From an uncultured Gammaproteobacteria bacterium (lineage in GTDB: Bacteria > Pseudomonadota > Gammaproteobacteria > Steroidobacterales > Rariloculaceae): 64,000 nt of DNA. Within the stretch, counting starts at the first letter, position 1; each line of letters opens with the position of its first letter. A program made the position numbers and the translations under genes. Below the pieces are notes generated by a model. That model saw only the letters and a list, made by a program, of their open reading frames with translations. It searched no databases and was not told the DNA's origin. Location: NCBI GenBank assembly GCA_964503125.1, contig CAZCZE010000021.1, positions 13,207 to 77,206 on the forward strand, written 5' to 3'. Below are positions 25,108 through 43,684 of this stretch, piece after piece.

Positions 25108-25213
25108 GACCGCCCCCTTATGGCACCTGGTCCGCCGTGCGAGACGATACACCAGGCCCGTGTTGCAGCGTACAATCCCGGCCGCGAGCCCCACGAATCA
25201 CGAGGCTACCGCC

Positions 25214-27249: not shown

Positions 27250-27301
27250 CGGAACGTCGTGCTGGCGGGCGGCGCGCTCGCGCCGTCCGCCGGCCCTGCG
27301 G

Positions 27302-27880
27302 CTATTGCGGCGGCGGTGCGCTGCGGTAGCGCCCCACGTAGGCCGCCTTCGCAAAGATCTTGCCCGCCATCGCCGCGAGCAGCTCGTCGCGGCCCGCCGT
27401 GTTCGGCAAATCGAGGTTGGCGTTCAACGCGTAGAGCTCGAACACGTAATGGTGATAGCGCGGTCCCGGCGGCGCGCCCGGGCCGAAGTACGAGTTCTGG
27501 CCCGCGATGTTGCGGCCCGTCACCGAGCCCTCGGGCAAGCTGCCCTCGGGGATGCCTTTGGCCGTGGCCGGGATGTTCCAAGCGAGCCAGTGCAGCACGT
27601 CGTTGGTTCCGCCTTGGAGCGCGACGTCGAGGTCATGAAAAATGAGCGCGTAGCTCACGGTCGTGTCGGGCGCGTTCGAGAACGTGAAGCCGGGCTGCAC
27701 GCCTTCGCGGCCCGCGTACTTCTGCGGCACGATGCCGCCGTCCTCGAACGCCGTGCTCTCCATGAGCAGCGGCGGTAGCCGGAACCCGCCGCCGCCTTGA
27801 GCGAGCGCCGGCGCGCCGGCGAGCGTTGCCAAGATCACGAGCGCGGTCGTCCCGCACACCTTAGTCAATTTCATCGTCAT
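27302..27880 (-). CDS. YbhB/YbcL (PEBP/Raf-kinase-inhibitor-like) protein, secreted
   Basis: HDLD...HWLAWNIP, YFGPGAP, HHYVFELYAL; AGGAGG RBS. Confidence 0.9.
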   Translation of the reverse strand: MTMKLTKVCGTTALVILATLAGAPALAQGGGGFRLPPLLMESTAFEDGGIVPQKYAGREGVQPGFTFSNAPDTTVSYALIFHDLDVALQGGTNDVLHWLAWNIPATAKGIPEGSLPEGSVTGRNIAGQNSYFGPGAPPGPRYHHYVFELYALNANLDLPNTAGRDELLAAMAGKIFAKAAYVGRYRSAPPPQ

Positions 27881-27887
27881 GTTCCTC

Positions 27888-28253
27888 CTAGTAATCGAAT
27901 TCGTAACCGGCCGCGAGATGCAGACCGACCACCACGGCGGCTGCAATCCCCGCGATGAGCCCCGCGCGTTTCCCGCGCGAGGGCGCGGGCACCCGCAACT
28001 CCCAGACTTCGGCACGGCTCACATTGACGCGCTCGTCACGCAGCGTTTTGAGCTCGATCGCACTGTCGGTCAGCGCCACGACGTTGACGTCGTCGTGCCA
28101 ACCGGTCGGCGTCAGCACCGACACACGGTCGCCGGGCTCGAGAGCCGCGACCGTGGCCGCTAGCTCAGGTGACTCGACCGGGCGCATCGTCGTGCAGCCG
28201 GTCGCCGCCCAGGCAGCGAAACACAGTAACGAGACGCGCAGAACACTCGGCAT
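27888..28253 (-). CDS. Hypothetical lipoprotein with C-terminal hydrophobic helix
   Basis: Lipobox-like AATGC; GAGG RBS; GC3-rich codons. Confidence 0.65.
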   Translation of the reverse strand: MPSVLRVSLLCFAAWAATGCTTMRPVESPELAATVAALEPGDRVSVLTPTGWHDDVNVVALTDSAIELKTLRDERVNVSRAEVWELRVPAPSRGKRAGLIAGIAAAVVVGLHLAAGYEFDY

Positions 28254-28275
28254 TGCCCGCTCCTCTGGCCCGACG

Positions 28276-29634
28276 TCAGTCGACGATCGCCTGATAGGCG
28301 AGCGTCTGGAAGCGCGCCGCGAAATCGAAATCTGCAATCATGTACTGAGCCATGAGGATCAAGACGAGATCCTCCTCGGGATCGAGGATGGCCCAGGTCG
28401 ATGCGGCGCCCGCCCAGCCGAACGTGCCCTTCGATCCCAAGTTGCCGGCCTGCGCCGGGTCGAGCAGCACGGACACGCCGAGCCCGTAGGCCAGCGAGCC
28501 TCCTCCGCTAGCGCCCGGCGCGCCGATACTGATGGCGGGGATGCTCGGCGGTAGGTTGTTGCTCGTCATGAGCTCGACGGTCTTCGTGCCGAGCAACCGC
28601 TGGCCGTCGAGCTCGCCGCCGTTGACGAGCATCTGGCCGAAGCGCGCGTAGTCCATGGCCGTCGACGACATGCTCAAGCCGCCGAACGGAATGTCGGTGT
28701 AACGCGCGTAACCGCCGCCGACCGGCCCGTTCGTCGGCGCCCCGGGCGGGGGCACGCCTTCGCGCGTCTCGACGCGCACGAGGCCGGAAGCGGGATTCGT
28801 AGGGTCGTTCGGCGCGTAGTTGGCCGTGTAGCGCCCGACGTACGAGCGCGGCACGCCGAACGTCGCGTCGCTCATGCCGAGCGGCTCGAAAATGCGCTCG
28901 CGCACGAAGTCGTCGAACGGCATGCCCGAGAAATGCTCGACGAGATACGCCTGCACGTCGTGCGCGACGCTGTATACCCACTGCTCTCCCGGGTGGTAGA
29001 GCAGCGGCACCTTCGGCAGGTTCTCGGCGACGAGCTGCTCAAGCGAGGTCGTCGTGACGAAGTCGACGCCGTTCTCTGCATACGCGCGGTCGAGGACGGG
29101 CGCGGTGCCGAATCCGTAGCTGAACCCCGCCGTGTGGCGGAACACGTCGTGGATCGTGGGCTTGCGCCGCGGCGCCGCAAGAAGCATGCGCTCGCCGTCC
29201 ATGCCGTCGAGCACCTGTACGTCCTTGAACGCCGGGATGTACTTGTCGAGCGGGTCGCTGAGCTGGAACTTGCCCTCCTCGTAGAGCATGAGCAGCGCGA
29301 CGCTCGTGACGGGCTTGGTCATCGAGTAGAGCCGGAACAGGCTGTCGGCGCGCATCGGCATGTTCGTCTCGCGCTCCGCCATGCCGTAGGCCTTGAGATG
29401 CGCGACGCGCCCGCGCCGCGCGATGAGCACGACGACGCCGGCCTTGCGGCCCGCATCGACCTCGGCCTGCATCGCGGCGTCAAGTCGTGCGAGGCGCTCG
29501 GCCGAGAGGCCGACCTCGGCCGGCCGCGCCGTCGGCAGCTCGGCCGCGGTCACTGTCGACGCCGCGCCCGCGAGAAGCAGCGCCGCAACGAACGGGAGCT
29601 GTCGCGCGCGCCGGCGCGATCCCAAGGTAGCCAT
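28276..29634 (-). CDS. Serine hydrolase (beta-lactamase class C/esterase family), secreted
   Basis: YSMTKPVT (SxxK), PGEQWVYS, FGWAGAAST. Confidence 0.92.
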   Translation of the reverse strand: MATLGSRRRARQLPFVAALLLAGAASTVTAAELPTARPAEVGLSAERLARLDAAMQAEVDAGRKAGVVVLIARRGRVAHLKAYGMAERETNMPMRADSLFRLYSMTKPVTSVALLMLYEEGKFQLSDPLDKYIPAFKDVQVLDGMDGERMLLAAPRRKPTIHDVFRHTAGFSYGFGTAPVLDRAYAENGVDFVTTTSLEQLVAENLPKVPLLYHPGEQWVYSVAHDVQAYLVEHFSGMPFDDFVRERIFEPLGMSDATFGVPRSYVGRYTANYAPNDPTNPASGLVRVETREGVPPPGAPTNGPVGGGYARYTDIPFGGLSMSSTAMDYARFGQMLVNGGELDGQRLLGTKTVELMTSNNLPPSIPAISIGAPGASGGGSLAYGLGVSVLLDPAQAGNLGSKGTFGWAGAASTWAILDPEEDLVLILMAQYMIADFDFAARFQTLAYQAIVD

Positions 29635-29687
29635 GAATCCCCCTTCGTGACCGGCCGAGGGCCGGCGTTTTCCAGGCATCGTAGTCC

Positions 29688-30227
29688 GTGGCCGCGCCTG
29701 GCCGCAACGGCGAGCTCGCACTCGTCGCTCTCGACGGGCGACGCGAAGTGCTCGGCCGGCTACCGGGCACCGTCTACGCGCCGCGGCTCACGCGCGAGGG
29801 CTTGCACGTGGCGTTCGACGATCAAGCCGGCGGCACGTCGAGGGTATACGTCGCCGCGCTCGACTCGCGGCAGCCGCTGCCTTCGGTCGAAGGTGGTAGC
29901 TCATTCCCGCTCTGGTCGTTCGACGACGAGAGCGTCTTTTTCATCGCGACCCGCAACGGCGAGCAAGCGCTGTTCGCGCAGCTCGCGGACGGCACGGGTG
30001 CACCGGAGCTCATCGTGTCGCCGGCGCGCGCGCCCGAGGCCTGGACTCCGAACGGTCGCCTGCTGAATTTCATCACGCCGCGCGACGGCGACTACGCGAT
30101 CTCGGCCTGGGACGCGTTCGACCGCACCGTCACGCGGGTCTTAGGGCGTGACGGCTCGCTGCAGCACAGCAGCCACTACTCGCCCGACGGCCGGCTGCTC
30201 ATGCTGTTTTCCGGTCGACTGAGGCCG
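29688..30227 (+). pseudogene. Truncated TolB/PD40 beta-propeller gene fragment
   Basis: APRLTREG.HVAF, PLWSFDDESVFF, PEAWTPNGRLL, HYSPDGRLL repeats. No RBS or N-terminal domain; similarity stops at the direct repeat. Confidence 0.65.
30183..30227 (+). repeat. Left direct repeat of the 13.3-kb block
   Basis: cccgacggccggctgctcatgctgttt (30183-30209) is identical to 43526-43552; the next 18 nt match with 1 indel and 2 mismatches. Confidence 0.92.
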
Positions 30228-30636
30228 TTCGCGGATAGGACGGATAATCGGGTTGTGTCGGCCGATGAGCTGCGCGCGCGACTGGAGCGCGCGACGGCCT
30301 GCCGATGCCGGCATGCGCGGTGCTCGCGGTTTCCGTGGCGCTGTGTCTCCTTTGCGGCGTTCGGGTCTTCCAGCTCCCGGGACGCATCGAGGTCGCCCAG
30401 CAATACGGATATACAGCGGAGCGTGCGCCGCATTCGTCGACGAGTTGCGCGAGCGCTTGGGTCAGAACGACGCCATCGAGTCCGTCTCGATCCTGCACAA
30501 CGTAGACGGCATGCAGGGGGGGCCTCCGATCGCCATCGGGGAATTGGCGCAGGGCCAGCATTGCAAGCTTGGTAGCCTGTTCCCTTCAACGGGCGTACGC
30601 TTGGCGATTAGCTCCCCGCCAAGAGGGAGGGCCACG

Positions 30637-33600
30637 ATGAATTGTCCGCGCTGCGGAACGCCAAACCGCGACGATCGACGGTTCTGCTCCGCGTGCGGGA
30701 TGCGTTTGACCGTCGCGTGCCAGGATTGCGGCACGCAGAACGAGCCGCCCGTGCGTTTCTGCGGCGGGTGCGGCAAAGCCTTGCCGAGCGCGGACGCGGC
30801 AGCGGCGCGGAGTCCTTTCCACGATATCGAGCGCCGTCAGCTGACGGTGATGTTCTGCGATTTGGTCGGTTCGACCGCGCTGTCGCGCGAGCTCGATCCG
30901 GAGGATCTACGTGACCTGCTGCGCCGGTATCACGAGCAAACGCGGCGGGTCATCGCGCGCTACGGTGGATTCATCGCGCGTTACGTGGGCGATGGGCTCC
31001 TGATCTACTTCGGCTACCCGCATGCGCGCGAGGACGCAGCCGTGCGGGCGATCCACTCCGGCCTCGAGATCACGAGCCTGGTTCGGGAAACGGCTGAACC
31101 TCTCCGCGGCAATCCCGCCGGACTGGCAGTTCGAATCGGCATCGCAACCGGTCTCGTCGTCGTCGACGACTCGATCGGCGACCGCGTCGCCGAAGACGCT
31201 GAAGCCGTCGGCGAAACTCCGAATCTCGCTGCCCGCCTACAGGGTCTCGCGGAACCGAACAGCGTCGTCGCCGCCGACGCGACACGCGAGCTGGCAGGCG
31301 GCCTATTCGTCTACGAAGATCTCGGCCTACAGCAACTGCGCGGCTTCGACCAGCCGGTCCGCGCATGGCGCGTGCTGCGCACGAGCGAAGCCCAGAGTCG
31401 GTTCGCGGCGGCACGCGGCACCCAGCAGACACGTCTGATCGGTCGCGACACCGAGCTGGGCCTCTTGCACGGTCACTGGCGAGACGCGGCGCGCGGCGAT
31501 GGCCGGCTCGTTCTGCTCACGGGCGAGGCCGGCATCGGCAAGTCGCGGCTCGCCGAGTCTCTCGCCGATCAAATCGCCGGCGAGCCGCATGTGACCATTC
31601 GATATCAGTGCTCGCCGTATCACCTCAACACTGCGCTGCACCCTTTCATTCACCAACTGGAGCTCGCGGCGAATCTGCGGCGCAACGACGATCTCGCGAG
31701 CAAGGTCGAAAGGCTCGAAGCGTTGCTTGCCGACGCGCGCATGGAGAAGGAGGAAGGCGTTCCGCTGTTTGCCGCATTGTTGTCGCTGCCTGCGTTGGAT
31801 CGCTATCCGCGCCTACAAATGACTCCGCAACAGCAGAAGCAGAAGACTCTGGTGGCGTTGCTCGACTATGTCAGGAGCAGCGCTTCGCACAGCCCGGCAC
31901 TCCTCATTTTCGAGGATTTGCACTGGATCGACCCGACGTCCACGGAATTTTTGACTCTGCTTGCGCCGCTCGTCGCGAGCATGCCGGTTCTGGTCGTCGC
32001 GACTTCACGGTCGACGACGCAGCACGACTGGCTTCAACTACAGCACGTTCATACGCTGCAACTCGAAAGGCTCGACCGCCGCCATGCGGCGACCATGATC
32101 AGCCATCTTCTCGAGAACGAGAACCCGCCGGCCAACCTCGTGAATGAGATCATGGCGAAGACCGATGGTGTACCGCTCTTCATCGAAGAGCTCGCGAGAA
32201 CGCTACTGACGGCCGGGCTCCCGAAGGAGCACGATCCGGCGTCGCTGCGCCAGCCGGCGACGATTCCATCTACGCTGCAAGATTCGTTGATGGCGCGACT
32301 CGATCAGCTCGGCACCGCTCGAAAGGTCGCCCAAGTCGCGGCTGCCATCGGACGCGAGTTCTCTTTCGAGCTGCTGGCGGCGATCGCGCCGCTCGACGAG
32401 ACCGAGCTACGCGATGCGCTGTCGACGTTGACCGATGGAGCGGTCCTGCTCGCACGCGAGGAAGGCGCGACGACCACGTTCCAATTCCGGCACTCGCTGG
32501 TGCAAGCCGTGGCGTACTCCAGCTTGCTGCGCAGCACTCGCCGCGAGCTTCATCAACAGATCGCGGCAACTCTCGAGAGCCGCTATCCGGAGCGCGTGCG
32601 CGTCGAGCCCGAAATCATCGCGCATCACTACACCCAGGCTCACGAGGATTTGCGCGCGGCGACCTACTGGGCGGCGGCAGCGCTGCGCGCGCTCGAACGT
32701 TCGGCGTTCGTGGAAGCACAAGGACACGTCACCAAGGGACTGAGCCTGCTCGAAGGCGCCGACGAGACGGACCGCGACCGCGCTCGGTTGACGCTCAACC
32801 TCGAAGTGCTGCGCGGCGCTGTGTACCGCGCCGTGAAAGGCTTCGCCTCGTCGGGCGCAGAGCAGAGTTTCACGCACGCACTCGACTTGTGCGAGCGCCT
32901 CGGCGACACCCGCAGGCTCGTGGATGTGCGTCGCGGGTTGTTCGCCTGCTACTACTCGCGCGGCACGCATGCGCTGGCGCAGGAGCAAGGCCAAGAGGTC
33001 AAGGCATTGGCCGAACGACTCGGCGATTCGGGCGCACGCATGCTGGCTCACTGGATGCTCGGCTGCGTCGCCTTTTGGAGAGGCGAGCTCGTCGCGGCCG
33101 ATCGCGAGCTCGAGGAAGCGATCGCGCTTTATGACCCGAAGCAGCAGCAAGCGAACACGCTCGCGCTACAGATCGATCCGGGCGCCAACGCGCTCTGCCA
33201 TCGCGGCTGGCTGCAGTGGACGCTCGGTTATCCGGACCGCGCCCTGCAGACGAGCGAGCACGCGATAAAAACAGCGCGTGACCTCAACCAACCGTTCGCT
33301 TTGTCGATGGCGCTGTTCTTTGCGATCGTCACACGCACGTGCTGCGGCGATTGGGAGATCGCGGCGCGCCAACTCGAAGAGCTTACGTCCGTGACCACGG
33401 AACACGGGCTAGAGTATCTGCGCAGCGTCGCGCGAGTGCTCAAAGGCCAGGAGCTGATCGCATCCGGCGAACTTGCGGCCGGCGTCGACGAGACGTTGCT
33501 CGCGCTCTCCGAGCTCGAAACTCAAGAGGCAGGTTTGGGAGTGCCCTGGACCTTGTCGATCCTCGCGCTCGGGTACACGCGGCTCGGCAAGACTGCCGAG

Positions 33601-33975
33601 GGCTTCGATACGCTGGACAAGGCGTTCGCAGTGGCCGAGCGAAACGGCGAACGCCACTGGGAAGCCGAGCTGCACCGCCAGCGTGGCGACCTGCTGCTGT
33701 TAGGCCCATCGCCCGATCAGACGGAAGCCGAGCGCTGCTACCGAAACGCGATGCAGGTCGCGCACCTCCAAGGCGCGACGTCGCTCGAGCTGCGGGCCGC
33801 GATGAGCCTCGCCCGGTTGCTCGAGCGCCAGCGCCGGCAGGCAATGGCGCAAGACGTTCTCTCCGAGGCTCATGCCCGGCTCACCGAGGGCTTCGACACC
33901 GTCGACCTGCGCGAGGCGAGCACGCGGTTGGAATCTTTCGTCGCCGCTAGGCATGACAAGCTGCGATCTTCGTAG
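30637..33975 (+). CDS. Double zinc ribbon - class III adenylate/guanylate cyclase - STAND AAA ATPase - TPR protein
   Basis: Four CxxC pairs; FCDLVGST, YVGDG, GETPNLAARLQ; Walker A GEAGIGKS; FEDLHWID; TPR-like tail; GGAGG before ATG 30637. Confidence 0.93.
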   Translation: MNCPRCGTPNRDDRRFCSACGMRLTVACQDCGTQNEPPVRFCGGCGKALPSADAAAARSPFHDIERRQLTVMFCDLVGSTALSRELDPEDLRDLLRRYHEQTRRVIARYGGFIARYVGDGLLIYFGYPHAREDAAVRAIHSGLEITSLVRETAEPLRGNPAGLAVRIGIATGLVVVDDSIGDRVAEDAEAVGETPNLAARLQGLAEPNSVVAADATRELAGGLFVYEDLGLQQLRGFDQPVRAWRVLRTSEAQSRFAAARGTQQTRLIGRDTELGLLHGHWRDAARGDGRLVLLTGEAGIGKSRLAESLADQIAGEPHVTIRYQCSPYHLNTALHPFIHQLELAANLRRNDDLASKVERLEALLADARMEKEEGVPLFAALLSLPALDRYPRLQMTPQQQKQKTLVALLDYVRSSASHSPALLIFEDLHWIDPTSTEFLTLLAPLVASMPVLVVATSRSTTQHDWLQLQHVHTLQLERLDRRHAATMISHLLENENPPANLVNEIMAKTDGVPLFIEELARTLLTAGLPKEHDPASLRQPATIPSTLQDSLMARLDQLGTARKVAQVAAAIGREFSFELLAAIAPLDETELRDALSTLTDGAVLLAREEGATTTFQFRHSLVQAVAYSSLLRSTRRELHQQIAATLESRYPERVRVEPEIIAHHYTQAHEDLRAATYWAAAALRALERSAFVEAQGHVTKGLSLLEGADETDRDRARLTLNLEVLRGAVYRAVKGFASSGAEQSFTHALDLCERLGDTRRLVDVRRGLFACYYSRGTHALAQEQGQEVKALAERLGDSGARMLAHWMLGCVAFWRGELVAADRELEEAIALYDPKQQQANTLALQIDPGANALCHRGWLQWTLGYPDRALQTSEHAIKTARDLNQPFALSMALFFAIVTRTCCGDWEIAARQLEELTSVTTEHGLEYLRSVARVLKGQELIASGELAAGVDETLLALSELETQEAGLGVPWTLSILALGYTRLGKTAEGFDTLDKAFAVAERNGERHWEAELHRQRGDLLLLGPSPDQTEAERCYRNAMQVAHLQGATSLELRAAMSLARLLERQRRQAMAQDVLSEAHARLTEGFDTVDLREASTRLESFVAARHDKLRSS

Positions 33976-33987
33976 GAGCAGGGAAAA

Positions 33988-35490
33988 ATGACCAACAACA
34001 GACTCACGAGCAGCAAGATATTCGAGCCGATCAAGATCGGTAACGTGACGTTCGATAACCGGATCCTGCGATCGTCCGTCGGCGGACGTCATTGCACTTA
34101 CGACGGTACGGTCACCGACGTCTGGAAGAACTTCGAGACGCGCTTCGCGGAGGGCGGCGTCGGCGGAATCATCGCGACGACATTTCACGTGAATCCTCAT
34201 CGGCTTTCACCGATGCAATATCCCTCGATCGCCGACGACAAGTTCATGTTGAACCTCGAGCGGCGCATCCGCGAAATCAAGCGCGCGCGCCCGGGATTGA
34301 AGTACATCATCCAGATCGGCGACCCCGGTTACGTCACGTACGAAAGCCTTTTCAGAGATCCGAAGGACGCGCTGTCTGCGTACGGTGGATTCGATCTCGC
34401 GTTCGGCTATCAAACGTGGCGCAAACCGATGTCCGAGGGGGAAATCTGGCAATCGATCGCCGATCACGCAGAGGCCGCGAGGCGCGTGCGAGAGGTCGAC
34501 GCCGACGGCGTCGAGATCGCGGCCGCCAAAGGCTACCTGATCCACCAGTTCCTGAACCCCGGCATCAATCGCAGGCGGGACCAATGGGGCGGAAACCCCG
34601 AGAACCGGTTTCGGTTCTTTGAGGAAGTCGTCAAGGCAGTACGGAAAGCAGTCAAGGACGACTTTCTCGTCGGAGTCAGGCTCGCGGCCGCCGACCACAA
34701 CCTGAGCCCATTGGCCTTTGCGGCGATGCGCTGGCCGTCACCGTTGCTTGCGTTATCGCGAGAGCGCCGGCACGGCAACGACGAGGCGCAGATGATCGCC
34801 TACGCGCAAAAGCTGCAGAGACGAGTCGACTATCTGCACATCGTGTCGGGTTTCGGTTTCCCGAGCCCGCGCGAGACACCCGGCGACTTCCCGTACGACG
34901 AAGTCAAGATGTTCTTTCACGCGACCCATACGCTGACGGGGAAGACCCGGCTGCGATCGGGGCTGTTGACGTTGATCCCGAAGCACGTCCTGCGATGGGT
35001 GCTGTCGCGCGGGTGGAAGTACGTTCCGGCGATCAATCGCGACGCCGCAAAACGGTTCAAGGAGCAGGTGCGGGACTGCAAGGTCATCGTCAACGGCGGT
35101 TTCCGCGAGCGCGCCACGATCGAAGAAGCGCTCGACTCGGGCTCGGCCGACATGGTGTCGATGGCGCGCGCATTGCTCGCGAACCCCAACTTGCTGAACT
35201 TGCTCCGCGACGGTCACGACGCACCGAACCGTTGCTCCGGCTGCAACAAGTGCGTCGGACGGACCGGAACGAGCCCGTTGGGTTGTTACGACGTACGCCG
35301 GTTCAACGGCGATGTACAACGGATGTACGAAGAGATACTGAAATGGAACGAGCCCGATCGGTTCGACGCCGCCGACCGCGAGCCCTCCGAGCGACAGGAT
35401 GAAGAAGAAACGGCTCCGCCGCCGAATGTCGAGGTCCTGAGGGCTGAGCTCAGCCGCCTATCCCCTGGTGCGCAGCCGGCACCGAAATGA
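33988..35490 (+). CDS. NADH:flavin oxidoreductase (Old Yellow Enzyme family), atypical
   Basis: FEPIKIG...NRILRS, GYLIHQFLNP..NRR.DQWGG..ENRFRF, VNGGFR, SMARALLANP, CSGCNKC. Confidence 0.88.
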   Translation: MTNNRLTSSKIFEPIKIGNVTFDNRILRSSVGGRHCTYDGTVTDVWKNFETRFAEGGVGGIIATTFHVNPHRLSPMQYPSIADDKFMLNLERRIREIKRARPGLKYIIQIGDPGYVTYESLFRDPKDALSAYGGFDLAFGYQTWRKPMSEGEIWQSIADHAEAARRVREVDADGVEIAAAKGYLIHQFLNPGINRRRDQWGGNPENRFRFFEEVVKAVRKAVKDDFLVGVRLAAADHNLSPLAFAAMRWPSPLLALSRERRHGNDEAQMIAYAQKLQRRVDYLHIVSGFGFPSPRETPGDFPYDEVKMFFHATHTLTGKTRLRSGLLTLIPKHVLRWVLSRGWKYVPAINRDAAKRFKEQVRDCKVIVNGGFRERATIEEALDSGSADMVSMARALLANPNLLNLLRDGHDAPNRCSGCNKCVGRTGTSPLGCYDVRRFNGDVQRMYEEILKWNEPDRFDAADREPSERQDEEETAPPPNVEVLRAELSRLSPGAQPAPK

Positions 35491-38400
35491 CGGCGGCCGC
35501 TGCGCATTCGCCGAGGCGGCGGTAGCTTTCCCACTGCTCGTCGGTGAAGAACTGGTCGAGCGTCGAATCGTGCGGAAAATGCAGATTGCGGGCCGCGTAT
35601 GAACGGAGGTCGAGCGGCATATCGCCAAGCCGGCTCGCATTGATCATCAACAACCAACACGGCGTCCCACCGTTATCGTAGTCGACGCGCGCCAACGCGC
35701 TGGAGTGACGTCCGAGACGCCCGATCTCCCACAGAGACCCGACGCCGGCGGGGTCGACCCACTCTCGAACCCACTTTGGAACGTGGCCGTTCGGGTCGAG
35801 AGCGGACCAACGGCCACCACCGGGCGGCGCTGGTCTCGGCTCGAGCCAACTGATCTCGGCGCCGAAGTCCAAACGGGCGCGCCGCATGAGCAGCGCGATC
35901 GCCGCCAGCTGATAGTCCTTATCCTCCGTCGCATTCGCGCAGATCATCAAAGCCACACGCCGGCGCAGCAACTCGTAGACGCCGGTCTCCTCGAAGTGCC
36001 CGCCGTCGCTCAGATACCAAAGCCGCTCGGAGGGTCCCGTGAAGTACCCCCGCCACTCGTTCAAGATCGCCGCGTGCGCGGGGAATATCCGCGCAACCGA
36101 GGACTTCAGGCGCCGCAGCAGTGCCGGCGGGTAGCGGCCGGGCCTCGCGCCGCCTTCGATGCCGGAGTTCCACCAATAGCCGAGCCGGATGTTGAACAAG
36201 CCGAGCAGCAGCGACGTCGGCAGGCTGGTGTGCCGCCCCAAGCCGGTCCCGAGCGCCGCGCCGGACGTCGAGATCCACTGGCTCAGCATGAGCGGCTCCA
36301 CGGGCGCCGGCTCGCCGCTGCGCTGTGCGAGCACATGAAATGCGCCCGGATCCGTGCCGCTCGTGACGGCCGTGAGGCCCGCCCGGAGCGCATGCGGGTC
36401 GTCCGCATCGGGTTCCCACAGCGCGTGGAACCGTCTACCGACGCTGACACCGCTCGGACCGACACACATCGACAGACCTTTGTCGAGACGCAACGGGCGT
36501 GCCGAGGCTGCATCGACCGTCTCGTTGACGCAGGCGTTGATGAGGTGCAGCGGTCCGCCGTAACGCTGTGGGTCGTACTCATCGAACGGCAAGTCGTCCC
36601 CGGGATCCGCCGCCTGCACTTCCGAGTTCGCGTCCGCGGGCCTTGCATGCACGCGGGTTGGGTTCGCGGCTCCGAGGAAAGCGCGGCTCAAGCGCGCGGC
36701 ATACAGCGCCTGCAACGAGAGCGTGTTCGGAAAGTCGCTCGACTGCCCGATCGCGAGCGACAGCCCGAGCGCGGCGAGCAACAGCCAGATCCCGAGAGTG
36801 CGGCTCGACTCGAATGCCGAGTGCACGAGAAGATCCAGGGTGAACAGCAGGAAGCCGAGCAACACGAACGCCAGCACCCACCGCACGAATCGGCGCAACC
36901 AGCGACTCAGAACGGAGAACGACCCTTCTTCGCCGCGGACGAGATTCTCGACGAACGCGCGCAACACGGGCAGCGCGGCCGCAATGCCGGCCATGCCGAC
37001 CGTCGCCATCGGCAGCATGCCCGTCACGGTTGAGCGGCGCGCGAGCGCGTCGAGCGCTACCCAACCGGCGCAGATCGCGACGAGTAGCAAGCTTTCGCCG
37101 GCCGCGCGCGTGAGCCGGTTGCGGGCGAGATCGCCGCGCAGCTTGAGCGGCGCCGCGGCACGCCAGCGCACCGCCTCCTGCGCGACCCAAGCGAGCACCA
37201 GCAGCAACAAGGCGAGCGGCGCGTAGGGCCGCAACTGCGGCACGCCGAGCGCGGATACCGCGGCCGCGAGCCCGAACAACCAGACTGGAATCGAGGCGCG
37301 CGGATGCTCCAGCGTGCTGGCGCGCGGCGGAGCGAGCCAGTACGCGAGCGTAGTCGGCACGAGCGCGACTGCGGCCACGACGACCGGCAGCCACCACCAG
37401 GGCCCGAGCGGGATCCCGAGCAGCGTCACGCCGTCGATCTGCGCGAACACCGTGTCGGCGGCCAACCGCAAAGTCGCGAGCGCCGCGACGAAGAATGCGC
37501 CGATGCACACGTGCACCGCGAGCAGGTTGCGCCAGATCGTCGCGATGTTCGACGTCAAGTCCGAGCGACCTTCGCCCGAGATGTAGTTTGCATGCGTGCG
37601 GAGCCACCACATTTCCGGGGAACCCGTATCGGCGAGCGCGGCTTGCACGCGTCGCGGCATGTGAGCCATGTCCTTGCCGCGCATGAACAGTCTGCCGAGA
37701 AAGGCCCCGATATAGCCGCCTCCCGATACGGTCGATAGGAAATCGATGCCGCGGAACCGATCGCAGCGCGCGAGCGCCTGCACGACGCCCAGCGCGAAGG
37801 TCGCACTGCGGATACCGCCGCCCGACAGAGCGAGCCCGACCGCGTCCGCGGGCAACTTTGCGTCGGCCGGGTTCGCCGGAGGCGGCGGTGGCCGATCGAT
37901 CGCGAGCTCACGCCGCCTATGCACGGCCCTCGCCTCGGCGGCGCGCAGGTGACGCGGATATTCGCGGCGGTCTGCGAGCAGCACGTCGGCTGCCTTCTCG
38001 CCGATCATGAACACCGACGCAGCGATGAAGTAGCCGGGGATCTCGGGAAACACCGACGCATCGACGACGCGTAGACCCTCGACGCCGTACACCCGGAAAT
38101 CGCTCGAAACGACTGCGTCGGTCTTTTTCGTATCGGGGCGCCACGCGTCGGAACCCATGCGACACGTGCCGCACGCGTGGTGGCCCCAAGCTTGGTACTT
38201 GACCCACTCCTCGAGCACACGCGAGTAGTCCCCGGCCTGCGGGCCGGGCTGAAGCTCGGACTTGAACGGCTTGATCGTCGCGTTGAGCTTGCGCACCCAC
38301 TCGATTCCCTCGAGCAGCGTCGTGACATCCTTGTCCGCCTCCTCCGAGCTCTCGTCGAAGTAACGGAAGTTGATCACCGGCTGCTCGAACGCAGAATCCG

Positions 38401-40138
38401 ACCGAAGCTCGACCGTACCGCTGCGATTGCGCGTGTGGCCCTGCAGGAGGACCCACGTCCACAGCCTCCGGGTCAGCGCGTGCTCGGGCGGCCACGTCAT
38501 GTCCCCGAGGCGCAGGACGGTGCTCAGCAATTGTCTCGACCAGCCGTGGTAGTAACCACGAAACGCCACCGGGAAGCCCACGATCAGCAGGTCCGGCTCC
38601 TCGCCATAACGAGGCTCGTCGGTGGTCATGAAGATCGCGAGCGCACCGCCGTTCGTCGCGTAGAGCCCGCGGCCGGTCCTGAGCCACTCGTCGCGCGCGC
38701 GATCCCCGTCGTGCCCTGGCTGGAACGACACGGTGCGTAGCGTCCGGAATTCCTTCTTCGTCTCGCTGATGATGCTGATCTCGTTGCGGTCCTGAAGGTA
38801 GCGCCCGACCGCCGGCAAATGGACGATTTCGCCGACCTTCGCGCCGTCGTGGCCCTGCAGTCCGTCGATGCCGTGCTTCTGCAACTGTTCCTTGTCGCCG
38901 ATGCCGCTCAGCATGAGCAGCTGCGGTGTGTTGAAGACACCGGCCGAAAGAACGATCTCGCGCGAAGCATAGAACCGCTTCAACGGAGCCTTCTCCGCGG
39001 CCTGCGCGCAGAAGCGTGGACTCGCGTCGTAAAGGTGCGCCCCGCAACGCACTTCAACGCCGATGGCGCGCGGCGTTTCACCTTCGACGTGGTCGGCGAA
39101 AATCACGCGCGTGACGTGCGCGCCGGTCAGAATCACGAGCCGATCCGGATGCCGGGTGGCAGTCTCGCGCAAATGCTCGCGAACACCGACGCGACGGCTG
39201 CCGTCGGTGCCGATCGGGATGAACGACAGCGTCGGGTTGTCCGTCGCGCGCGGCGTGTCGAGGTTCGGGTCGAGATACTTCACCCACTGCGTCACCAACA
39301 CGCGCTTGAGCAGCTCGCCGATACCTCCGGCTCGGAGCAGATGGCCGAATACTCGCAGGATTATGCGGCGGAAGGTCCCGTCTCGCAGTGCGATACCGAC
39401 GACGAGCACCGGATCGATGAAGCTCGTCTTCTGCCAACCGGCGAACCCGTGCCCTCCGCCGTCGAGTGTCAGGCGCGGATTCAGGAAAGCGACGAGGTGA
39501 CGCCAGCCGCTGTAGAAAAACCCGAGGGCCCTACGAAAGAACCCGTGGTACTGCGTGTAATAGAGGCAATTCTCGACGCGAGTGAAGTAGCCGTTCATTT
39601 TCTCCGCGCGCCAGCTATCGTCGTGCGTCAGGCTGGCGATTCGGTTCCAGTCGCCGGCCGGAGGCTTGACCACGATCATGGCGTGATGCGCCGTGCAGCC
39701 GCCGAGCGCGCTGGAACGCGGATAGTGCACGCCGCCTTTCGGCCCATCCCCGCCCTTCGAGGGGTCGGTGCGGATGTCGTACTTCAAGTCACGCTGTTGC
39801 AGCTCGTCGTCGTCGTAGTGACGCACCGAGTAATCCCAGTTCAGCACCTCGTCCTCGGCCGCGGCGGGGTGATAACCGGGGATGCGATAGACCTCGCGCT
39901 CCTCGCGATCGTTCGGGGCGCCGTCGGCATCGGCGCGCGGCGGCACGAACGGACCGCCCGTTTCCGTGTGCGGCAATCCGGGGTCCAATCCCGACTCGAT
40001 GACGAGCACGCGCAGGCCTTCGAGGGCGAGGCGCGCCGCCAACGGGCCGCCACCGGCTCCCGACCCGACGACGATGTAATCGAACGGGGTCTCCTCGTGA
40101 GCCTGCGCCTTCTCGATCAGCTCGTGGACAGTTGGCAT
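35450..40138 (-). CDS. GMC oxidoreductase - patatin/cPLA2-like phospholipase fusion with membrane helices (1562 aa)
   Basis: GSGAGGG, WGHHACGTCRMG, RVVDASVFP; then LALSGGGIRSATF, STVSGGGY, many hydrophobic helices, and LSDGGHFE. GAGG before ATG 40138. Confidence 0.88.
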   Translation of the reverse strand: MPTVHELIEKAQAHEETPFDYIVVGSGAGGGPLAARLALEGLRVLVIESGLDPGLPHTETGGPFVPPRADADGAPNDREEREVYRIPGYHPAAAEDEVLNWDYSVRHYDDDELQQRDLKYDIRTDPSKGGDGPKGGVHYPRSSALGGCTAHHAMIVVKPPAGDWNRIASLTHDDSWRAEKMNGYFTRVENCLYYTQYHGFFRRALGFFYSGWRHLVAFLNPRLTLDGGGHGFAGWQKTSFIDPVLVVGIALRDGTFRRIILRVFGHLLRAGGIGELLKRVLVTQWVKYLDPNLDTPRATDNPTLSFIPIGTDGSRRVGVREHLRETATRHPDRLVILTGAHVTRVIFADHVEGETPRAIGVEVRCGAHLYDASPRFCAQAAEKAPLKRFYASREIVLSAGVFNTPQLLMLSGIGDKEQLQKHGIDGLQGHDGAKVGEIVHLPAVGRYLQDRNEISIISETKKEFRTLRTVSFQPGHDGDRARDEWLRTGRGLYATNGGALAIFMTTDEPRYGEEPDLLIVGFPVAFRGYYHGWSRQLLSTVLRLGDMTWPPEHALTRRLWTWVLLQGHTRNRSGTVELRSDSAFEQPVINFRYFDESSEEADKDVTTLLEGIEWVRKLNATIKPFKSELQPGPQAGDYSRVLEEWVKYQAWGHHACGTCRMGSDAWRPDTKKTDAVVSSDFRVYGVEGLRVVDASVFPEIPGYFIAASVFMIGEKAADVLLADRREYPRHLRAAEARAVHRRRELAIDRPPPPPANPADAKLPADAVGLALSGGGIRSATFALGVVQALARCDRFRGIDFLSTVSGGGYIGAFLGRLFMRGKDMAHMPRRVQAALADTGSPEMWWLRTHANYISGEGRSDLTSNIATIWRNLLAVHVCIGAFFVAALATLRLAADTVFAQIDGVTLLGIPLGPWWWLPVVVAAVALVPTTLAYWLAPPRASTLEHPRASIPVWLFGLAAAVSALGVPQLRPYAPLALLLLVLAWVAQEAVRWRAAAPLKLRGDLARNRLTRAAGESLLLVAICAGWVALDALARRSTVTGMLPMATVGMAGIAAALPVLRAFVENLVRGEEGSFSVLSRWLRRFVRWVLAFVLLGFLLFTLDLLVHSAFESSRTLGIWLLLAALGLSLAIGQSSDFPNTLSLQALYAARLSRAFLGAANPTRVHARPADANSEVQAADPGDDLPFDEYDPQRYGGPLHLINACVNETVDAASARPLRLDKGLSMCVGPSGVSVGRRFHALWEPDADDPHALRAGLTAVTSGTDPGAFHVLAQRSGEPAPVEPLMLSQWISTSGAALGTGLGRHTSLPTSLLLGLFNIRLGYWWNSGIEGGARPGRYPPALLRRLKSSVARIFPAHAAILNEWRGYFTGPSERLWYLSDGGHFEETGVYELLRRRVALMICANATEDKDYQLAAIALLMRRARLDFGAEISWLEPRPAPPGGGRWSALDPNGHVPKWVREWVDPAGVGSLWEIGRLGRHSSALARVDYDNGGTPCWLLMINASRLGDMPLDLRSYAARNLHFPHDSTLDQFFTDEQWESYRRLGECAAAAVISVPAAHQGIGG

Positions 40139-40182
40139 CGTGCTCACCTCGTTGCCGTGCGGCTGAAGCGGACGCTCGAGCG

Positions 40183-43100
40183 CTAGAGCGTGCGTAGGAA
40201 CGCTTTGAGCTGCCGCTTTTCGTCGTCCGACAGCGGCTCTGCGAACCAATGGCCCCGGTCGAGCACGAAGTCCGGGCTCTTGTTGATGCGCAGCAGCGCG
40301 AGCCCGGCCTCGCGCTCGAACTCTGCAAGCACGTCCGCGTCCGTCACCCTATCCGCCTCAACCTCCACACAAGGTTTGTGCGCCGCTAGCAGCCGCGCCT
40401 TGAAACCGGCGCGTAGCAATGCCGAGAGTCCGTTCGCAATGTCGCCTCCGGCCGCCGACGAGCTCGCGTTGATGACGAGACTCACGGGCGTGCCTTTCGG
40501 TATCGGTCCGACGATGAGGTCTCCGCGCCGGCCCGACGTGAACTCGTTGAGCCACCAGCCGAGGTACAAGCTGAGGGCCGCGAGCAAGGCGAATGTCGCT
40601 CGTGCGAGCCAGCGCCGACGATCGCGTGCCCAGAACAACAACACGACCGCCACGGCTACGGTCGCCACAGGCCCCACCCACGGCCAGATGCCGAAGACAT
40701 AATCGAGGCGGGTGACGACGAGAACGGCCGCGTTGAGGACCGCGATCAGAAACAGTGCAAACGCCGCATGGCGGGCGCGCCCCGCGGCCGCGAACACGAG
40801 GCACGCGGCGGCGAGCGCAATCCAGAGGTACAGGGTTGCGACCCGCGTCCCGAACGGGCCCAGCACGCTCTCGAACAACGAACGAATGAACGGCTCCCGG
40901 AAAATGAAACAGCTCTCGGCTGTCGTCCGGTAGATGAAACCCGGGTCGTTGCCGGCGAGCTCGGGGTGCGTCAAGCGCAGGTCGCCGGGCCGGGAATTTG
41001 CGCTGGGTTGCCGCCGGTCTTTCCAGAGCAGCTTGTCGATACCGTCCTCGAACGCGAGCAGTCGACCTTCGATGGACGGATCTCGATTTAAGAGCCCTAG
41101 CGCATTGTTATGCAGGTACGGTGCCGTCGCCCAGAGGCCGATCAGGGACGGCGGCCGGTAATAGCCGGGTCCGCCGGACGGCGGGTAGTAGACATCGTTG
41201 TTGCCCCAGACATCGAGCGGCGCGCCGGAATAGGGATTGTAGAAATGCACGGGCCCGACGGCCGGCAGGCTCTTGTAATCCTCCGAGGAGAAATTGTCCC
41301 AGACCTGTCCGCGCATCGCGTTCGTGCCGACGGCACGCTGAGAGTTCGTGCCGACGAGCGTGACCGGGACACGGATGTCCGTCGAAAGAAAATTGTCTTC
41401 GAGGAAGGGGTCGGTCGCCGCGGCCGGCGTATCGGCCGGGGTACCTGCGATCGTACTGATTTGCCGCACGTAGCCGGCATACGCCGCGCTGTTCGTGAAC
41501 CTCTCCCAGTCCGCGAATGTGCGCGGCAACACGAGCCGCGTGAAGGGCCACGCCGTCGATCCCGAGTGCTCTTCCCAGTCGTCCGCGAACTGAAGTGCGA
41601 ATCCTTCGGGCTGCTTGCTCGAGTGGCAGATCGCGCAGTTCGCGATGAACACGGCGCGGCCGGCGCTCGCGCGCGCGCGCTCCTCCTCCGAGATCGGCGG
41701 GGCGCCTCGCGCGCTCGCGAGCGGCATCGGTGGCGCGACGTTGGCTCCGGTCCGCGGGTTCTCGTAGAGGAAGTAGTCGAGAATCGCCGGCACTCGATAC
41801 TTTAGCGAGGTGCGCCAATAGACGGAATTCGCGCGCAGGCTCGCGACCGAGAACGGCCGTTGCCCGCGGAAACCGATGATCGGCCGCGACGTGCGGGCCC
41901 ACTCCTCCGAAAACGTGCCGATGTTGAGGTACACGCGTGCGACGGAGGCTACCGCGCCGATGCTGTCGCCGCCGTCGACGAGCATCCGCGGCGTATGGCG
42001 CGGCGTAACCCTCGCATCGCTCTCCTCGAGCGACGGCACGAGCAGGCTCGCGCGACCTTGCTCTTCGGGCGGGTTTCGCATCGCGCGGTCGACCCGGGCC
42101 GGCAAGTCGAACACCGCGTTGATCGTGTTCGAGTTGTTGATGTGGTCGGAGCTGAGCAGCGACGTGTCGACGGTGCCGGGCTGTTGGCTGTTGAGGAAGT
42201 GGAAGAAGAAGGACTTCTCGTCCGTGAGATTCGCGAAGAGTCGGACGGGCGTCCAGTATTGATTGCCGATCGTGCTCGACAGATTGCTCCACGCGGGCTC
42301 CGCGGGATCCGCCGGCGGGTTCAGCGGGTGCGGCGCGACGTGGCAATACGCGCACGACATGCCGACGCGAAACGGCCGAACCAACTTGGGGTCGCCGTGG
42401 ACGTCGCGAGCGAGGTCGTAGAACGCGTCGCTCGAGTCCTCGACGCGCTCCTTCCAACGGAGACGCGCTTCTCCGGCCTCTGTGGTGTTGCCGAAAAAAT
42501 CCGGGTTCAGCATCAGACGTAACCCGATCACGCCGCTCGGATACCCGTAGACGAGCGGGTCGACGCCGTCCTTCGGCAGGCGCTGGATGGTGTCCTCGTA
42601 GAGCTCGCGGTCACCCGGCTCGAACGGCTCGTAGAGCCCGGTCGGCTGCGGCCGAGGCGGCTCGGACATCCCCACATCGGCGTCCGCTTCCGGCGGCCGC
42701 AACAGGATCTCGTCGCCGTTCGCTTCGTCGAGATAGAGGCCGAGCAACTTGCGGGCGGGATCGGTCTGCGCCCGCATGCCGGGCTGATTGATCATTCCGC
42801 GGTCGCGGAAGCGAAACGCGCGCTGACGCGAATCGAGCAGAACTAGAAAGTCGACGAGGCCGAAGCCGTGCTGCTGTGCCCAGTTCCAGAATTCGTCGTT
42901 GCCGCCAGCCCACAGCATCCAAGAGTTCTTGCCGCGAATGGCGTCGCGCGCGTCCGGTGTAACGCGCGCGTCCGCGGGGACAGGCGCGCCATCAGTGAAG
43001 TCGAACGGCTCGAGTTGACCCGTGGGCCCGACGATCTGATCCATTTCGTGGAACAGATTGCGTGGTTCCACCGGAAACGAGTCGTCGTCGCGCTGCCAAA

Positions 43101-43341
43101 CAGGCGTACCGCTTGCCGTGTGGCCGCGCTGAGGCTCGTCTTGCGGCGCGGCGGGATCGGCCTCCGTCTGCCACTGCTCCCACCCTTGTTCGGAGGAGGG
43201 TGCCCGCGCGGCCTGAGGAAGAGGTGTCGCGCCCCGATCGTCGCCGCCCTCGCGCACGAGCAGGACGACGACGGCGACGAGAGCCGCCGCATAGAGCAAA
43301 GATTGGCGCCTCGCCCCGTGACGCTGCTGCCGACGCTTCAT
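40183..43341 (-). CDS. Membrane-anchored di-haem c-type cytochrome, RoxA/di-haem peroxidase-like (1052 aa)
   Basis: CAYCH (42340-42354), CAICH (41623-41637), PSLIGLWATAPYLHNN, C-terminal RGHWF..LSDDEKRQLKAFLRTL; N-terminal anchor plus about 4 internal TM helices. Confidence 0.8.
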   Translation of the reverse strand: MKRRQQRHGARRQSLLYAAALVAVVVLLVREGGDDRGATPLPQAARAPSSEQGWEQWQTEADPAAPQDEPQRGHTASGTPVWQRDDDSFPVEPRNLFHEMDQIVGPTGQLEPFDFTDGAPVPADARVTPDARDAIRGKNSWMLWAGGNDEFWNWAQQHGFGLVDFLVLLDSRQRAFRFRDRGMINQPGMRAQTDPARKLLGLYLDEANGDEILLRPPEADADVGMSEPPRPQPTGLYEPFEPGDRELYEDTIQRLPKDGVDPLVYGYPSGVIGLRLMLNPDFFGNTTEAGEARLRWKERVEDSSDAFYDLARDVHGDPKLVRPFRVGMSCAYCHVAPHPLNPPADPAEPAWSNLSSTIGNQYWTPVRLFANLTDEKSFFFHFLNSQQPGTVDTSLLSSDHINNSNTINAVFDLPARVDRAMRNPPEEQGRASLLVPSLEESDARVTPRHTPRMLVDGGDSIGAVASVARVYLNIGTFSEEWARTSRPIIGFRGQRPFSVASLRANSVYWRTSLKYRVPAILDYFLYENPRTGANVAPPMPLASARGAPPISEEERARASAGRAVFIANCAICHSSKQPEGFALQFADDWEEHSGSTAWPFTRLVLPRTFADWERFTNSAAYAGYVRQISTIAGTPADTPAAATDPFLEDNFLSTDIRVPVTLVGTNSQRAVGTNAMRGQVWDNFSSEDYKSLPAVGPVHFYNPYSGAPLDVWGNNDVYYPPSGGPGYYRPPSLIGLWATAPYLHNNALGLLNRDPSIEGRLLAFEDGIDKLLWKDRRQPSANSRPGDLRLTHPELAGNDPGFIYRTTAESCFIFREPFIRSLFESVLGPFGTRVATLYLWIALAAACLVFAAAGRARHAAFALFLIAVLNAAVLVVTRLDYVFGIWPWVGPVATVAVAVVLLFWARDRRRWLARATFALLAALSLYLGWWLNEFTSGRRGDLIVGPIPKGTPVSLVINASSSAAGGDIANGLSALLRAGFKARLLAAHKPCVEVEADRVTDADVLAEFEREAGLALLRINKSPDFVLDRGHWFAEPLSDDEKRQLKAFLRTL

Positions 43342-43525
43342 TTTCGTTTTCTCCCCCAGGCTCGAGCCGGGGTACGCGGTTATACGAAGCGGAAAGGAGC
43401 CTCAGCGCTGCTATCTTATGTAAGTTCTCTCCAAAACGTTAGCTCTCGTAGCCAAGACGGCTGCGCGCGGCCGGGTAGTGGCGGTTGCGAGGACCGTGAA
43501 CCGGTCGCCGGCCGTCGACATCGCA

Positions 43526-43569
43526 CCCGACGGCCGGCTGCTCATGCTGTTTCCCGTCGACTGGGGCCG
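43526..43569 (+). repeat. Right direct repeat of the 13.3-kb block
   Basis: 43526-43552 is identical to 30183-30209 and continues cccgtcgactggggccg. Confidence 0.92.
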
Positions 43570-43684
43570 CGTTGCCGGCGAGGGCCCCGTCGAACTTGGC
43601 CTTAGGACCGCAGTCGAACTCGAGTCGGTCGAGCCGGCGCCGTGCTACCGTAATGGCAACAATAATGAGCTCCGGGGGATGCCC

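Follow-up and report, generated by a model that had tools for sequence, protein, structure and literature searches.

Chromosomal plasticity hotspots hold variable content between conserved core genes. Many integrase-mediated islands and prophages target the 3' ends of genes, among them tRNA and tmRNA genes and protein genes such as icd. In CIMEs, cargo flanked by direct repeats contains no recombination or transfer genes, and the repeats are att sites of a known ICE/IME family whose integrase acts in trans (PMC5704250, PMC7563491). Two routes that use host recombination, homology-facilitated illegitimate recombination (HFIR) and the single-crossover integration of circularized DNA, have also been documented (PMC3240628). 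A comparable model, that of the "orphaned 3' region", has been put forward for Rhs/CDI and T6SS effector loci (PMC5361080). Here we analyze a 64-kb stretch of DNA (the window) from a soil gammaproteobacterium, in which a block of genes lies between two copies of a direct repeat. A sequence-only reading had taken this repeat as the boundary of an acquired unit. The repeat itself is real: 27 of 27 nt (CCCGACGGCCGGCTGCTCATGCTGTTT) are identical between 30183-30209 and 43526-43552, a distance of 13,343 bp from start to start. A further 18 nt in copy 1 and 17 in copy 2 are near-identical, differing by T/C, an extra G in copy 1, and A/G, for a similarity of ~46 nt in all with one indel. Even with 3 mismatches tolerated, the 27-mer matches the window at these two places only, and a chance origin is very unlikely, as none of 100 dinucleotide-preserving shuffles reproduced the match. 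The interval between the copies holds exactly four large genes, as had been proposed, and it is not at a tRNA, the sole tRNA of the window lying at 9290-9364. Rfam, promoter, and terminator scans near the repeats returned nothing relevant.

The repeat is not the end of an element. Alignment to intact homologs identifies both copies as the 3' terminus (…APDGRLLMLFPVD-stop) of a native gene for a TolB-like propeller lipoprotein of ~300 aa. Full-length homologs of this gene end in …RRQFDIAPDGRLLMLFPVD, with SPDGR 95 codons before it, and blastn of intact propeller genes against the window placed the gene body, copy 1, and copy 2 as listed here:

28276..29634, minus strand: beta-lactamase-family serine hydrolase gene, the native left flank (NCBIfam, translation)
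29645..29712, plus strand: conserved upstream region of the propeller gene (…GCATCGTAGTCC…GCCGCAACGGCG; blastn to L087 and L089, alignment), with a 131-bp deletion after it, through which the start codon and lipoprotein signal peptide were lost
29711..30193, plus strand: propeller pseudogene body, approximately codons 31-195 of the ~300-aa lipoprotein, ending in the blade motif SPDGR
30183..30228, plus strand: repeat copy 1, spanning the terminal ~13 codons of the propeller gene, its TGA stop, and 5 nt beyond
30229..30572, no strand: left orphan DNA, 344 bp
30573..43462, no strand: conserved four-gene module, equal to L090 13437-542 (single 12,945-bp alignment, 85% nt identity)
43463..43514, no strand: right orphan DNA, ~40-52 bp, absent from L090 and with propeller homology undetectable
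43515..43570, plus strand: repeat copy 2, the resident propeller 3' end (FDIAPDGRLLMLFPVD; 96% identity over 52 nt to L087)
43685..46438, plus strand: M16 (pitrilysin-family) zinc protease gene, the native right flank (Pfam, synteny)

In the relatives L094 and L089, the propeller gene is intact, present in a single copy, and located directly upstream of the M16 protease gene. The order in L094 is beta-lactamase-family gene (minus strand), then further along the propeller gene (plus) followed by the M16 gene (plus), and positions 10627-13566 of this contig match window positions 43502-46428 in one uninterrupted alignment; in L089 the propeller 3' end likewise runs on into the M16 upstream region. 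A 26-mer of the repeat is single-copy in L087, L088, and L089. The upstream motif of the propeller gene is present in L081, L082, L087, L088, and L089.

The propeller gene of the window is a pseudogene. Its body has 83-84% nt identity to the intact L087 and L089 genes, with a GC3 of 0.84-0.90 in its frame and protein homologs (P0122-P0126). Besides the loss of its start and signal peptide through the 131-bp deletion, it carries an in-frame 285-bp deletion between two CCCGACGGCCG motifs, which encode SPDGR and APDGR and lie exactly 285 bp apart in L087, L089, and L094. This deletion, inside the common CCCGACGGCCG, joined copy 1 to the SPDGR blade and sets the left edge of the 27-mer. Copy 1 has a +1 (G) frameshift, and in copy 2 the stop has changed from TGA to TGG. 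Copy 2 is contiguous with the native M16 upstream region and has 11-24 more bases of the parent gene 5' of the 27-mer (from 43502/43515); judging from the alignment with L094, sequence derived from the propeller gene may start again at 43502. Both junctions of the insert thus adjoin propeller-gene sequence. Some other features at the left end did not withstand scrutiny. Two plus-strand ORFs (28933-30066 and 29688-30575) were rejected as genes, as they had no Pfam match; by frame-specific GC near copy 1, only 29700-30230 is coding-like. The long plus-strand ORF, called in the database as a 255-aa protein (P0121), is chimeric, as it reads through from the pseudogene into orphan DNA. A common left break point was also considered, as similarity among the window, L081, and L082 ends after GCAACGGCG, but L087 and L089 diverge there from each other, so this position may mark only the end of a conserved promoter element.

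These results do not support the reading of the repeat as the delimiter of a unit. The repeat is sequence from the 3' end of the target gene, its left edge was formed by a deletion within the propeller pseudogene, and 344 bp on one side and ~40-52 bp on the other of unrelated DNA separate the repeats from the conserved module. The origin of this orphan DNA was sought among propeller genes, L090, and all fetched loci, and scores did not exceed those of shuffled controls; the 3' part of the left stretch has a coding-like GC pattern in the frame of the adjacent cyclase gene. Because a native gene's tail is simply present twice, the locus represents an ordinary rearrangement in a very variable region, not a new kind of mobile element. 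It shows how a long exact repeat around an island can mislead when the repeat is target-gene sequence with edges set by later decay, and here the repeat is neither a mobility signal nor the boundary of a functional unit.

The module is also found in the relative L090, where all four genes keep their order and align at 85% nt identity. It lies there at an Amidohydro_2 / Acetyltransf_3 site, between unrelated flanks that have no counterpart in the window, and no repeats flank it. The earlier account had itself named relatives with the block and without the repeats as evidence against it, and L090 is such a relative. As the module occurs there in another context without the repeats, the repeat belongs to the target and not to the module, and the four genes move as a unit. 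The stretch common to both is 30573-43462 rather than 30183-43552, corresponding to a module of ~12.9 kb within an insert of ~13.3 kb that includes the orphan DNA. A search of the block ends in the window and in L090 found no terminal inverted repeats or direct repeats. No locus in which a propeller tail adjoins the module was found in the collections searched. The two loci provide a clean natural example of a multi-gene module at two chromosomal sites in close relatives without any recombinase.

That the block is accessory was borne out by the comparison with sister genomes, as the same flanks occur without it in L081, L082, L085, L086, L094, and L095. The beta-lactamase-family gene is syntenic in L081, L082, L085, and L086 (76-86% aa identity), and the M16 proteases of relatives have 79-91% aa identity. 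A scan of a genome collection with the M16 protease returned only relatives at 65% identity or less without synteny, together with one 4-kb contig, and for this reason provided no empty site. The composition of the block is mildly atypical, with a GC3 of 0.78-0.83 against 0.88 +/- 0.03 (MWU p = 0.001), and its tetranucleotide composition is atypical as well. The interval from the OTCase gene to the M16 gene had different content in every relative examined: nothing, DctPQM, a histidine kinase with an EAL regulator, a Tricorn-like cluster, CorA, or the propeller gene. In this it is like other plasticity hotspots, with a gene set that differs from relative to relative, and nothing singles it out from them; it is one more example.

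No recombinase or transposase domain was detected in the four block proteins or in 30 other ORFs of the 64-kb window, which agrees with the sequence-only reading. Insertion by homology or microhomology, which that reading had named alongside mobilization in trans, is the most plausible class of mechanism because the window has no recombinase. We rejected a transposon or IS-bounded composite, given that the block ends in the window and L090 have no inverted repeat between them, that the window has no transposase, and that the duplication (at least 46 bp) is too long compared to the short 2-14 bp target-site duplication expected of a transposon. The ends of the block differ between the window and L090, and there are therefore no element-specific ends. 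An island of the integrase type was rejected as well: the flanking repeats are target-derived, yet the window encodes no tyrosine or serine recombinase and the ends are not common to L090. Like integrase islands, the locus has flanking direct repeats that correspond to a target gene's 3' end, with the native tail displaced to the far side of the insert. It departs from them on several points: no integrase is encoded in the window, the target gene was left unrestored, L090 has other ends, and both repeats are separated from the conserved module by orphan DNA.

The polarity of the event is that of an insertion, not of an ancestral presence of the block. We believe that its origin probably lies in a host-recombination-mediated insertion with duplication of the target, followed by decay. 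In the ancestral state, the propeller gene would have stood between the beta-lactamase-family gene and the M16 protease gene. Approximately 13.3 kb would then have been inserted at the tail of the propeller gene in this lineage, duplicating at least 46-70 bp of target, so that one tail came to lie to the left of the insert and the resident tail to its right, where it is still continuous with the sequence upstream of the M16 gene. Decay of the disrupted gene would have followed, through the 131-bp loss of start and signal peptide, the 285-bp deletion, the +1 frameshift, and the change of TGA to TGG. Integration by host recombination rather than by an element-encoded enzyme may have followed one of two routes, either a single crossover of a circularized fragment bearing a short stretch of propeller tail, or the entry of a linear fragment anchored on the left by propeller homology and joined illegitimately on the right, as in HFIR; either would leave the resident 3' tail orphaned downstream. 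A variant order, in which the crossover took place at the upstream SPDGR motif and the 285-bp deletion arose in the right copy, would be inseparable from insertion followed by deletion. Some points count against this account. The homology-dependent routes require incoming DNA in which a propeller tail already lay beside the block, which merely shifts the first illegitimate joining back by one step, and a target duplication of 46-70 bp is unusual for a simple illegitimate insertion. A recombinase acting in trans may also be encoded in the genome beyond the 64 kb visible here. Neither a donor nor an intermediate was seen, and host recombination is proposed here as the probable mechanism. The locus is nonetheless like those explained by HFIR and the orphaned 3' region model in having no element enzyme, no defined element ends, and a conserved resident gene as anchor, with the resident 3' end displaced downstream of the new module to give a direct repeat of gene-tail sequence. 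It is unlike the orphaned 3' region loci in that the anchor is the gene of a small propeller lipoprotein rather than a toxin gene, and the cargo is a 13-kb metabolic or signaling module.

Among the alternatives, an intragenomic copy-and-paste by replication template switching (MMBIR-like) is unlikely. A fork broken in the propeller tail would have taken the module from a template at another locus before re-entering upstream of the break point, yielding the duplication and the filler in one event. This would fit the filler DNA at both junctions, the use of microhomology at the SPDGR/APDGR motif, and the presence of the module at a second type of locus in a relative from the same sample as an "empty" contig. 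However, the flanks of the L090-type locus were not co-copied and a second copy of the module is not seen in the 64 kb, and in bacteria there is, to our knowledge, little documentation of such events for tracts of 13 kb. It is also quite unlikely, in our estimate, that the module is a recombinase-less cargo of related soil Gammaproteobacteria, hopping repeatedly from one chromosomal site to another through a mechanism that acts in trans or is still undescribed and that produces target duplications of ~50-70 bp, and perhaps also encoding an uncharacterized, cyclic-nucleotide-regulated system of membrane-lipid oxidation (patatin lipase-GMC oxidase, di-heme cytochrome c, and ene-reductase).

We consider it improbable that the block was ancestral at this site and that relatives with the propeller gene beside the M16 gene lost it through direct-repeat recombination. 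Deletion between direct repeats of 27-46 bp would leave a single-copy site like one that was never occupied, and the block is old in the clade, as its divergence from L090 (85%) equals that of the core (81-90%). Against this stand the adjacency of propeller and M16 genes in L094 and L089, which spans a wider range of relatives than the window-L081 pair, the location of the only other block copy at another locus, and the composition of the block, which is unlike that of its flanks; the duplication of the tail would in any case still require an insertion-type event. A CIME-like element, with attL/attR repeats generated by an integrase that is encoded elsewhere and targets the propeller 3' end, is distinctly improbable. 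The locus does resemble CIMEs in having direct-repeat-flanked cargo without recombination or transfer genes inside, a documented arrangement (PMC5704250, PMC7563491), and repeats derived from a gene 3' end are seen in many integrase-borne islands. Unlike in CIMEs, no partner ICE/IME or second att-flanked copy is in evidence in the 64-kb window, and no integrase is encoded there; moreover, the independent L090 copy has other ends and no such repeats, the common DNA stopping 344 bp and ~52 bp inside the repeats, the target gene was not restored, and the identity begins on the left at a deletion junction and not at a core site. An assembly artefact that merged a block-free chromosome with a separate block molecule (e.g., a 13.3-kb circle) through the common repeat is highly improbable even for what is evidently a metagenome-type contig of 82.7 kb, as exact identity spans just 27 nt, less than usual final k-mers and reads, the copies have 3 differences in 46 nt as well as different flanks and are thus resolved as distinct sequences, and each junction independently links block-side DNA to propeller-derived sequence.

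The cargo of the proposed insertion consists of four genes:

30637..33975, plus strand: Zn-ribbon / class III nucleotidyl cyclase / AAA_16 / TPR signaling protein (Pfam)
33988..35490, plus strand: Old-yellow-enzyme (OYE) family FMN oxidoreductase, 500 aa (PF00724, E = 1e-50; NCBIfam)
35450..40138, minus strand: GMC flavin oxidoreductase fused to a membrane-embedded patatin-like domain (Pfam; motifs, transmembrane stretches)
40183..43341, minus strand: di-heme cytochrome c, 1052 aa, membrane-anchored or secreted

The start of the cyclase gene is uncertain (the ORF is open from 30253), and its cyclase-AAA-TPR part matches TIGR03903 with E = 1e-171, yet below the family cutoff. The GMC-patatin fusion (database entry P0135) has 1562 aa from its ATG in an ORF open to 40249, and its PDB matches are alcohol oxidase, choline oxidase, and fatty-acid photodecarboxylase. 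The cytochrome c has CXXCH at residues 330 and 569 and weak similarity to RoxA-like proteins and di-heme peroxidases, and no relative with a solved structure was found. We also considered a Pycsar or CBASS-type defense system and rejected it: PADLOC gave only generic matches of the cyclase domain to PycC (E = 1e-15) and none for the other three proteins, and distant relatives keep the cytochrome c and GMC-patatin genes without the cyclase, so there is no conserved cyclase-effector pair. The view of the four genes as one functional package holds in part. They travel together, as L090 demonstrates, but more distant relatives retain only the cytochrome c and GMC-patatin pair, which limits the four-gene package to this sub-lineage. 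A metagenome scan with the GMC-patatin protein returned two distant loci only. Homologs were also seen in Rhizobium and Pseudomonas. This uncharacterized pair, a large di-heme cytochrome c and a GMC-patatin fusion, is a candidate for biochemical study. The pair is widespread and is sometimes further fused to a P450.

The 27-mer CCCGACGGCCGGCTGCTCATGCTGTTT occurs at 30183 (copy 1) and 43526 (copy 2), with starts 13,343 bp apart. The ~18 bases 3' of it are also similar, with one T/C and one A/G difference and an additional G in copy 1, so sequence comparison reproduced the repeat as the sequence-only reading had described it. Only these two sites were found in the window even with 3 mismatches allowed, and none of 100 dinucleotide-preserving shuffles yielded any such site, in agreement with the claim that a chance match is very unlikely. 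The window is chromosomal (66-70% GC), with core genes such as prfA, prmC, prs, pth and ychF; among named relatives, the closest are MAGs of soil Gammaproteobacteria. Its only tRNA lies at 9290, and no recombinase or transposase domain was found in the four block proteins or the 30 other window ORFs, so the claims that the block lacks a recombinase and is not at a tRNA both hold. Domain assignments bore out the four-gene content between the copies:

30637-33975, +, Zn-ribbon / class III cyclase / AAA_16 / TPR protein
33988-35490, +, OYE-family flavoprotein
35450-40138, -, GMC oxidoreductase fused to a membrane patatin-like domain
40183-43341, -, di-haem cytochrome c, 1052 aa

The composition check proposed earlier showed the block to be mildly atypical, which fits an accessory origin: GC3 of its genes is 0.78-0.83 vs 0.88 +/- 0.03 in 32 other genes (Mann-Whitney p = 0.001), and tetranucleotide distance is elevated over 30-44 kb.

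Frame-specific GC revealed a + strand coding signal at ~29700-30230 that reaches copy 1 without a stop codon. Full-length homologues of the translated fragment are TolB-like propeller lipoproteins of 292-300 aa (66-81% identity), all of which end in …RRQFDIAPDGRLLMLFPVD and, 95 codons before that, have a blade motif SPDGR. Using the intact propeller genes of two loci from relatives (L087 and L089) as blastn queries against the window, we obtained four matching pieces:

29645/29670-29712/29715, propeller upstream region
29711-30193, propeller codons ~31-195 (83-84% identity)
30183-30224, copy 1: last ~42 nt and stop of the propeller gene
43515-43566, copy 2: last 52 nt and stop of the propeller gene (96% identity)

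Both repeat copies thus correspond to the tail of a single native gene. The body and copy 1 alignments overlap by 11 nt, CCCGACGGCCG, a motif found twice in intact propeller genes, exactly 285 bp apart, where it encodes SPDGR and APDGR. The left edge of the exact repeat is thus the junction of an in-frame, motif-to-motif 285-bp deletion within the pseudogene, and was ruled out as an insertion boundary. The propeller gene has also lost its start codon and signal peptide through a 131-bp deletion; copy 1 is frameshifted by an additional G (+1) and retains the TGA, which is TGG in copy 2. Directly after the stop codon, both copies have GGCCG, which is absent from L087 and L089, suggesting that one lineage, or two very close ones, gave rise to both tails, and the 3 differences in 46 nt between them indicate that the insertion was not very recent.

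Two gene models here are artefacts of stop-poor, high-GC sequence. The 255-aa database call P0121 (29688-30575) was rejected as a read-through chimera of propeller pseudogene fragment and non-coding orphan DNA, and a 986-aa extended ORF from 43478 precedes the real, signal peptide-bearing start of the M16 zinc protease (ATG 43685). Upstream of the propeller gene lies a conserved ~45-70-bp element (TTTTCC.GGCATCGTAGTCC…GCCGCAACGGCG; window 29645-29712, L081 9806-9878, L082 6836-6907, L087 9916-9961, L089 1061-1128). It is kept even where the propeller gene is deleted, all sequences diverge right after it, and it may be a divergent promoter that is shared and has been maintained by selection.

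P0136 (84% identity) is the one close relative of the GMC-patatin protein, and on its contig (L090) the genes for cytochrome c, GMC-patatin, OYE and cyclase lie in the order and orientation of the window. A single alignment of 12,945 bp (85% nucleotide identity) links L090 to window 30573-43462, and L090 has an equal composition offset. The convergent OYE and GMC-patatin genes overlap by 41 bp in the window (35450-35490) and by 38 bp in L090 (8524-8561), a conserved overlap. The L090 flanks (Amidohydro_2 on one side; Acetyltransf_3 and FAD_binding_3 on the other) are unrelated, with no match in the window, and no direct or inverted repeats were found at its block ends. This indicates that the four genes move together and that the repeat is not part of the moving unit. 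The horizontally acquired unit of the sequence-only reading is partly supported, by this co-movement and the mildly atypical GC3, but without its repeat; a relative with the block but no repeats, which that reading had named as contrary evidence, does exist. The idea that the repeat defines a four-gene package fared similarly: the same four genes recur in L090, but the repeat lies outside the conserved module, and in distant relatives (38-50% identity) just the pair of cytochrome c and GMC-patatin is retained. Orphan DNA, 344 bp on the left (30229-30572) and about 40-52 bp on the right (43463-43501/43514), separates module from repeat copies, and neither stretch has a detectable relative. A CIME-like element with an integrase acting in trans, the earlier suggestion of mobilisation in trans, is disfavoured, as the L090 copy ends differently and is not flanked by the repeats. 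L090 and the block-free L081 are from one sample, and as block identity (85%) equals core identity between window and L081 (81-90%), the age of the module seems to match that of the lineage split, with the module just sitting at different sites.

The proposed search of sister genomes for the empty site was successful. L094 has the order bla-family (-), one small gene, propeller (+), M16 (+), and its 10627-13566 matches window 43502-46428 in a single alignment block, indicating that the propeller tail continues straight into the M16 upstream region, as it does in L089; a 26-mer of the repeat occurs once each in L087, L088 and L089. In L081 (M16 88% identical), bla lies directly beside M16 with only the upstream element and a few propeller-tail bases remaining, so this locus is a deletion derivative. 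The second beta-lactamase-family gene, intact at window 50257-51627, is likewise reduced in L081 (17704-18064) to fragments (residues 79-145, 423-456) by another internal deletion. The polarity at the site is thus insertion; propeller-M16 adjacency is widely distributed, which speaks against ancestral presence of the block with loss from relatives. A misassembly is improbable because only 27 nt are exactly identical, the copies are distinct and there are two independent junctions. The OTCase-to-M16 interval (window 24900-43700) differs in content in every relative examined (L081, L082, L085-L087, L089, L094, L095), with variants including empty and propeller only. Other occupants are:

L082, DctPQM
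L085, histidine kinase and EAL regulator
L086, Tricorn-like cluster
L095, CorA and small ORFs
P0008 contig, only PBP, beside M16

Such varied cargo indicates a chromosomal plasticity hotspot, with the four-gene block one of many occupants.

The final structure needs an event that flanked the insert with propeller tails, plus the 285-bp deletion, and we infer three equally parsimonious routes. A circularised fragment with a propeller tail of at least 57-70 bp may have integrated through a single crossover; the deletion would then have affected the left copy, or the right one where the crossover was at the upstream motif. Alternatively, a linear fragment could have been anchored on the left by propeller homology, with illegitimate joining 52-65 bp ahead of the resident stop (HFIR, documented in PMC3240628), analogous to the "orphaned 3' region" model (PMC5361080). 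A single event of replication template switching could also account for both duplication and filler. None of the three routes needs a recombinase, in agreement with the lack of an integrase, transposase, terminal inverted repeats or shared ends. The feature is thus explained as a target-gene tail that was duplicated around an insertion without a recombinase; the locus is hypervariable, and events of this kind are ordinary.

The uncharacterised module is a more interesting by-product than the repeat. In it, a flavoenzyme resembling alcohol oxidases is fused to a patatin lipase domain that has transmembrane segments; the other parts are the large di-haem cytochrome c, an ene-reductase and a regulator of the cyclase-STAND type. 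This domain content suggests that the module may oxidise membrane lipids or fatty alcohols under the control of signalling, and a defence-system reading was not supported. In distant relatives, DUF4331, TPR and DUF7379/LCAT-like alpha/beta hydrolase (lipase-like) genes accompany the pair in place of OYE and cyclase (L083 359-2363; L091 14780-18376), again pointing to lipid chemistry. The pair of di-haem cytochrome c and ~1550-aa GMC-patatin fusion (window 35450-43341; L091 6770-14740; L084 1690-7259) has no solved structure or named function and is conserved across Proteobacteria and Acidobacteria-like MAGs, including Rhizobium, Pseudomonas, Paraburkholderia and Roseateles. Some GMC-patatin versions have an added C-terminal P450 (2000+ aa), and in L084 GMC and patatin are separate genes.
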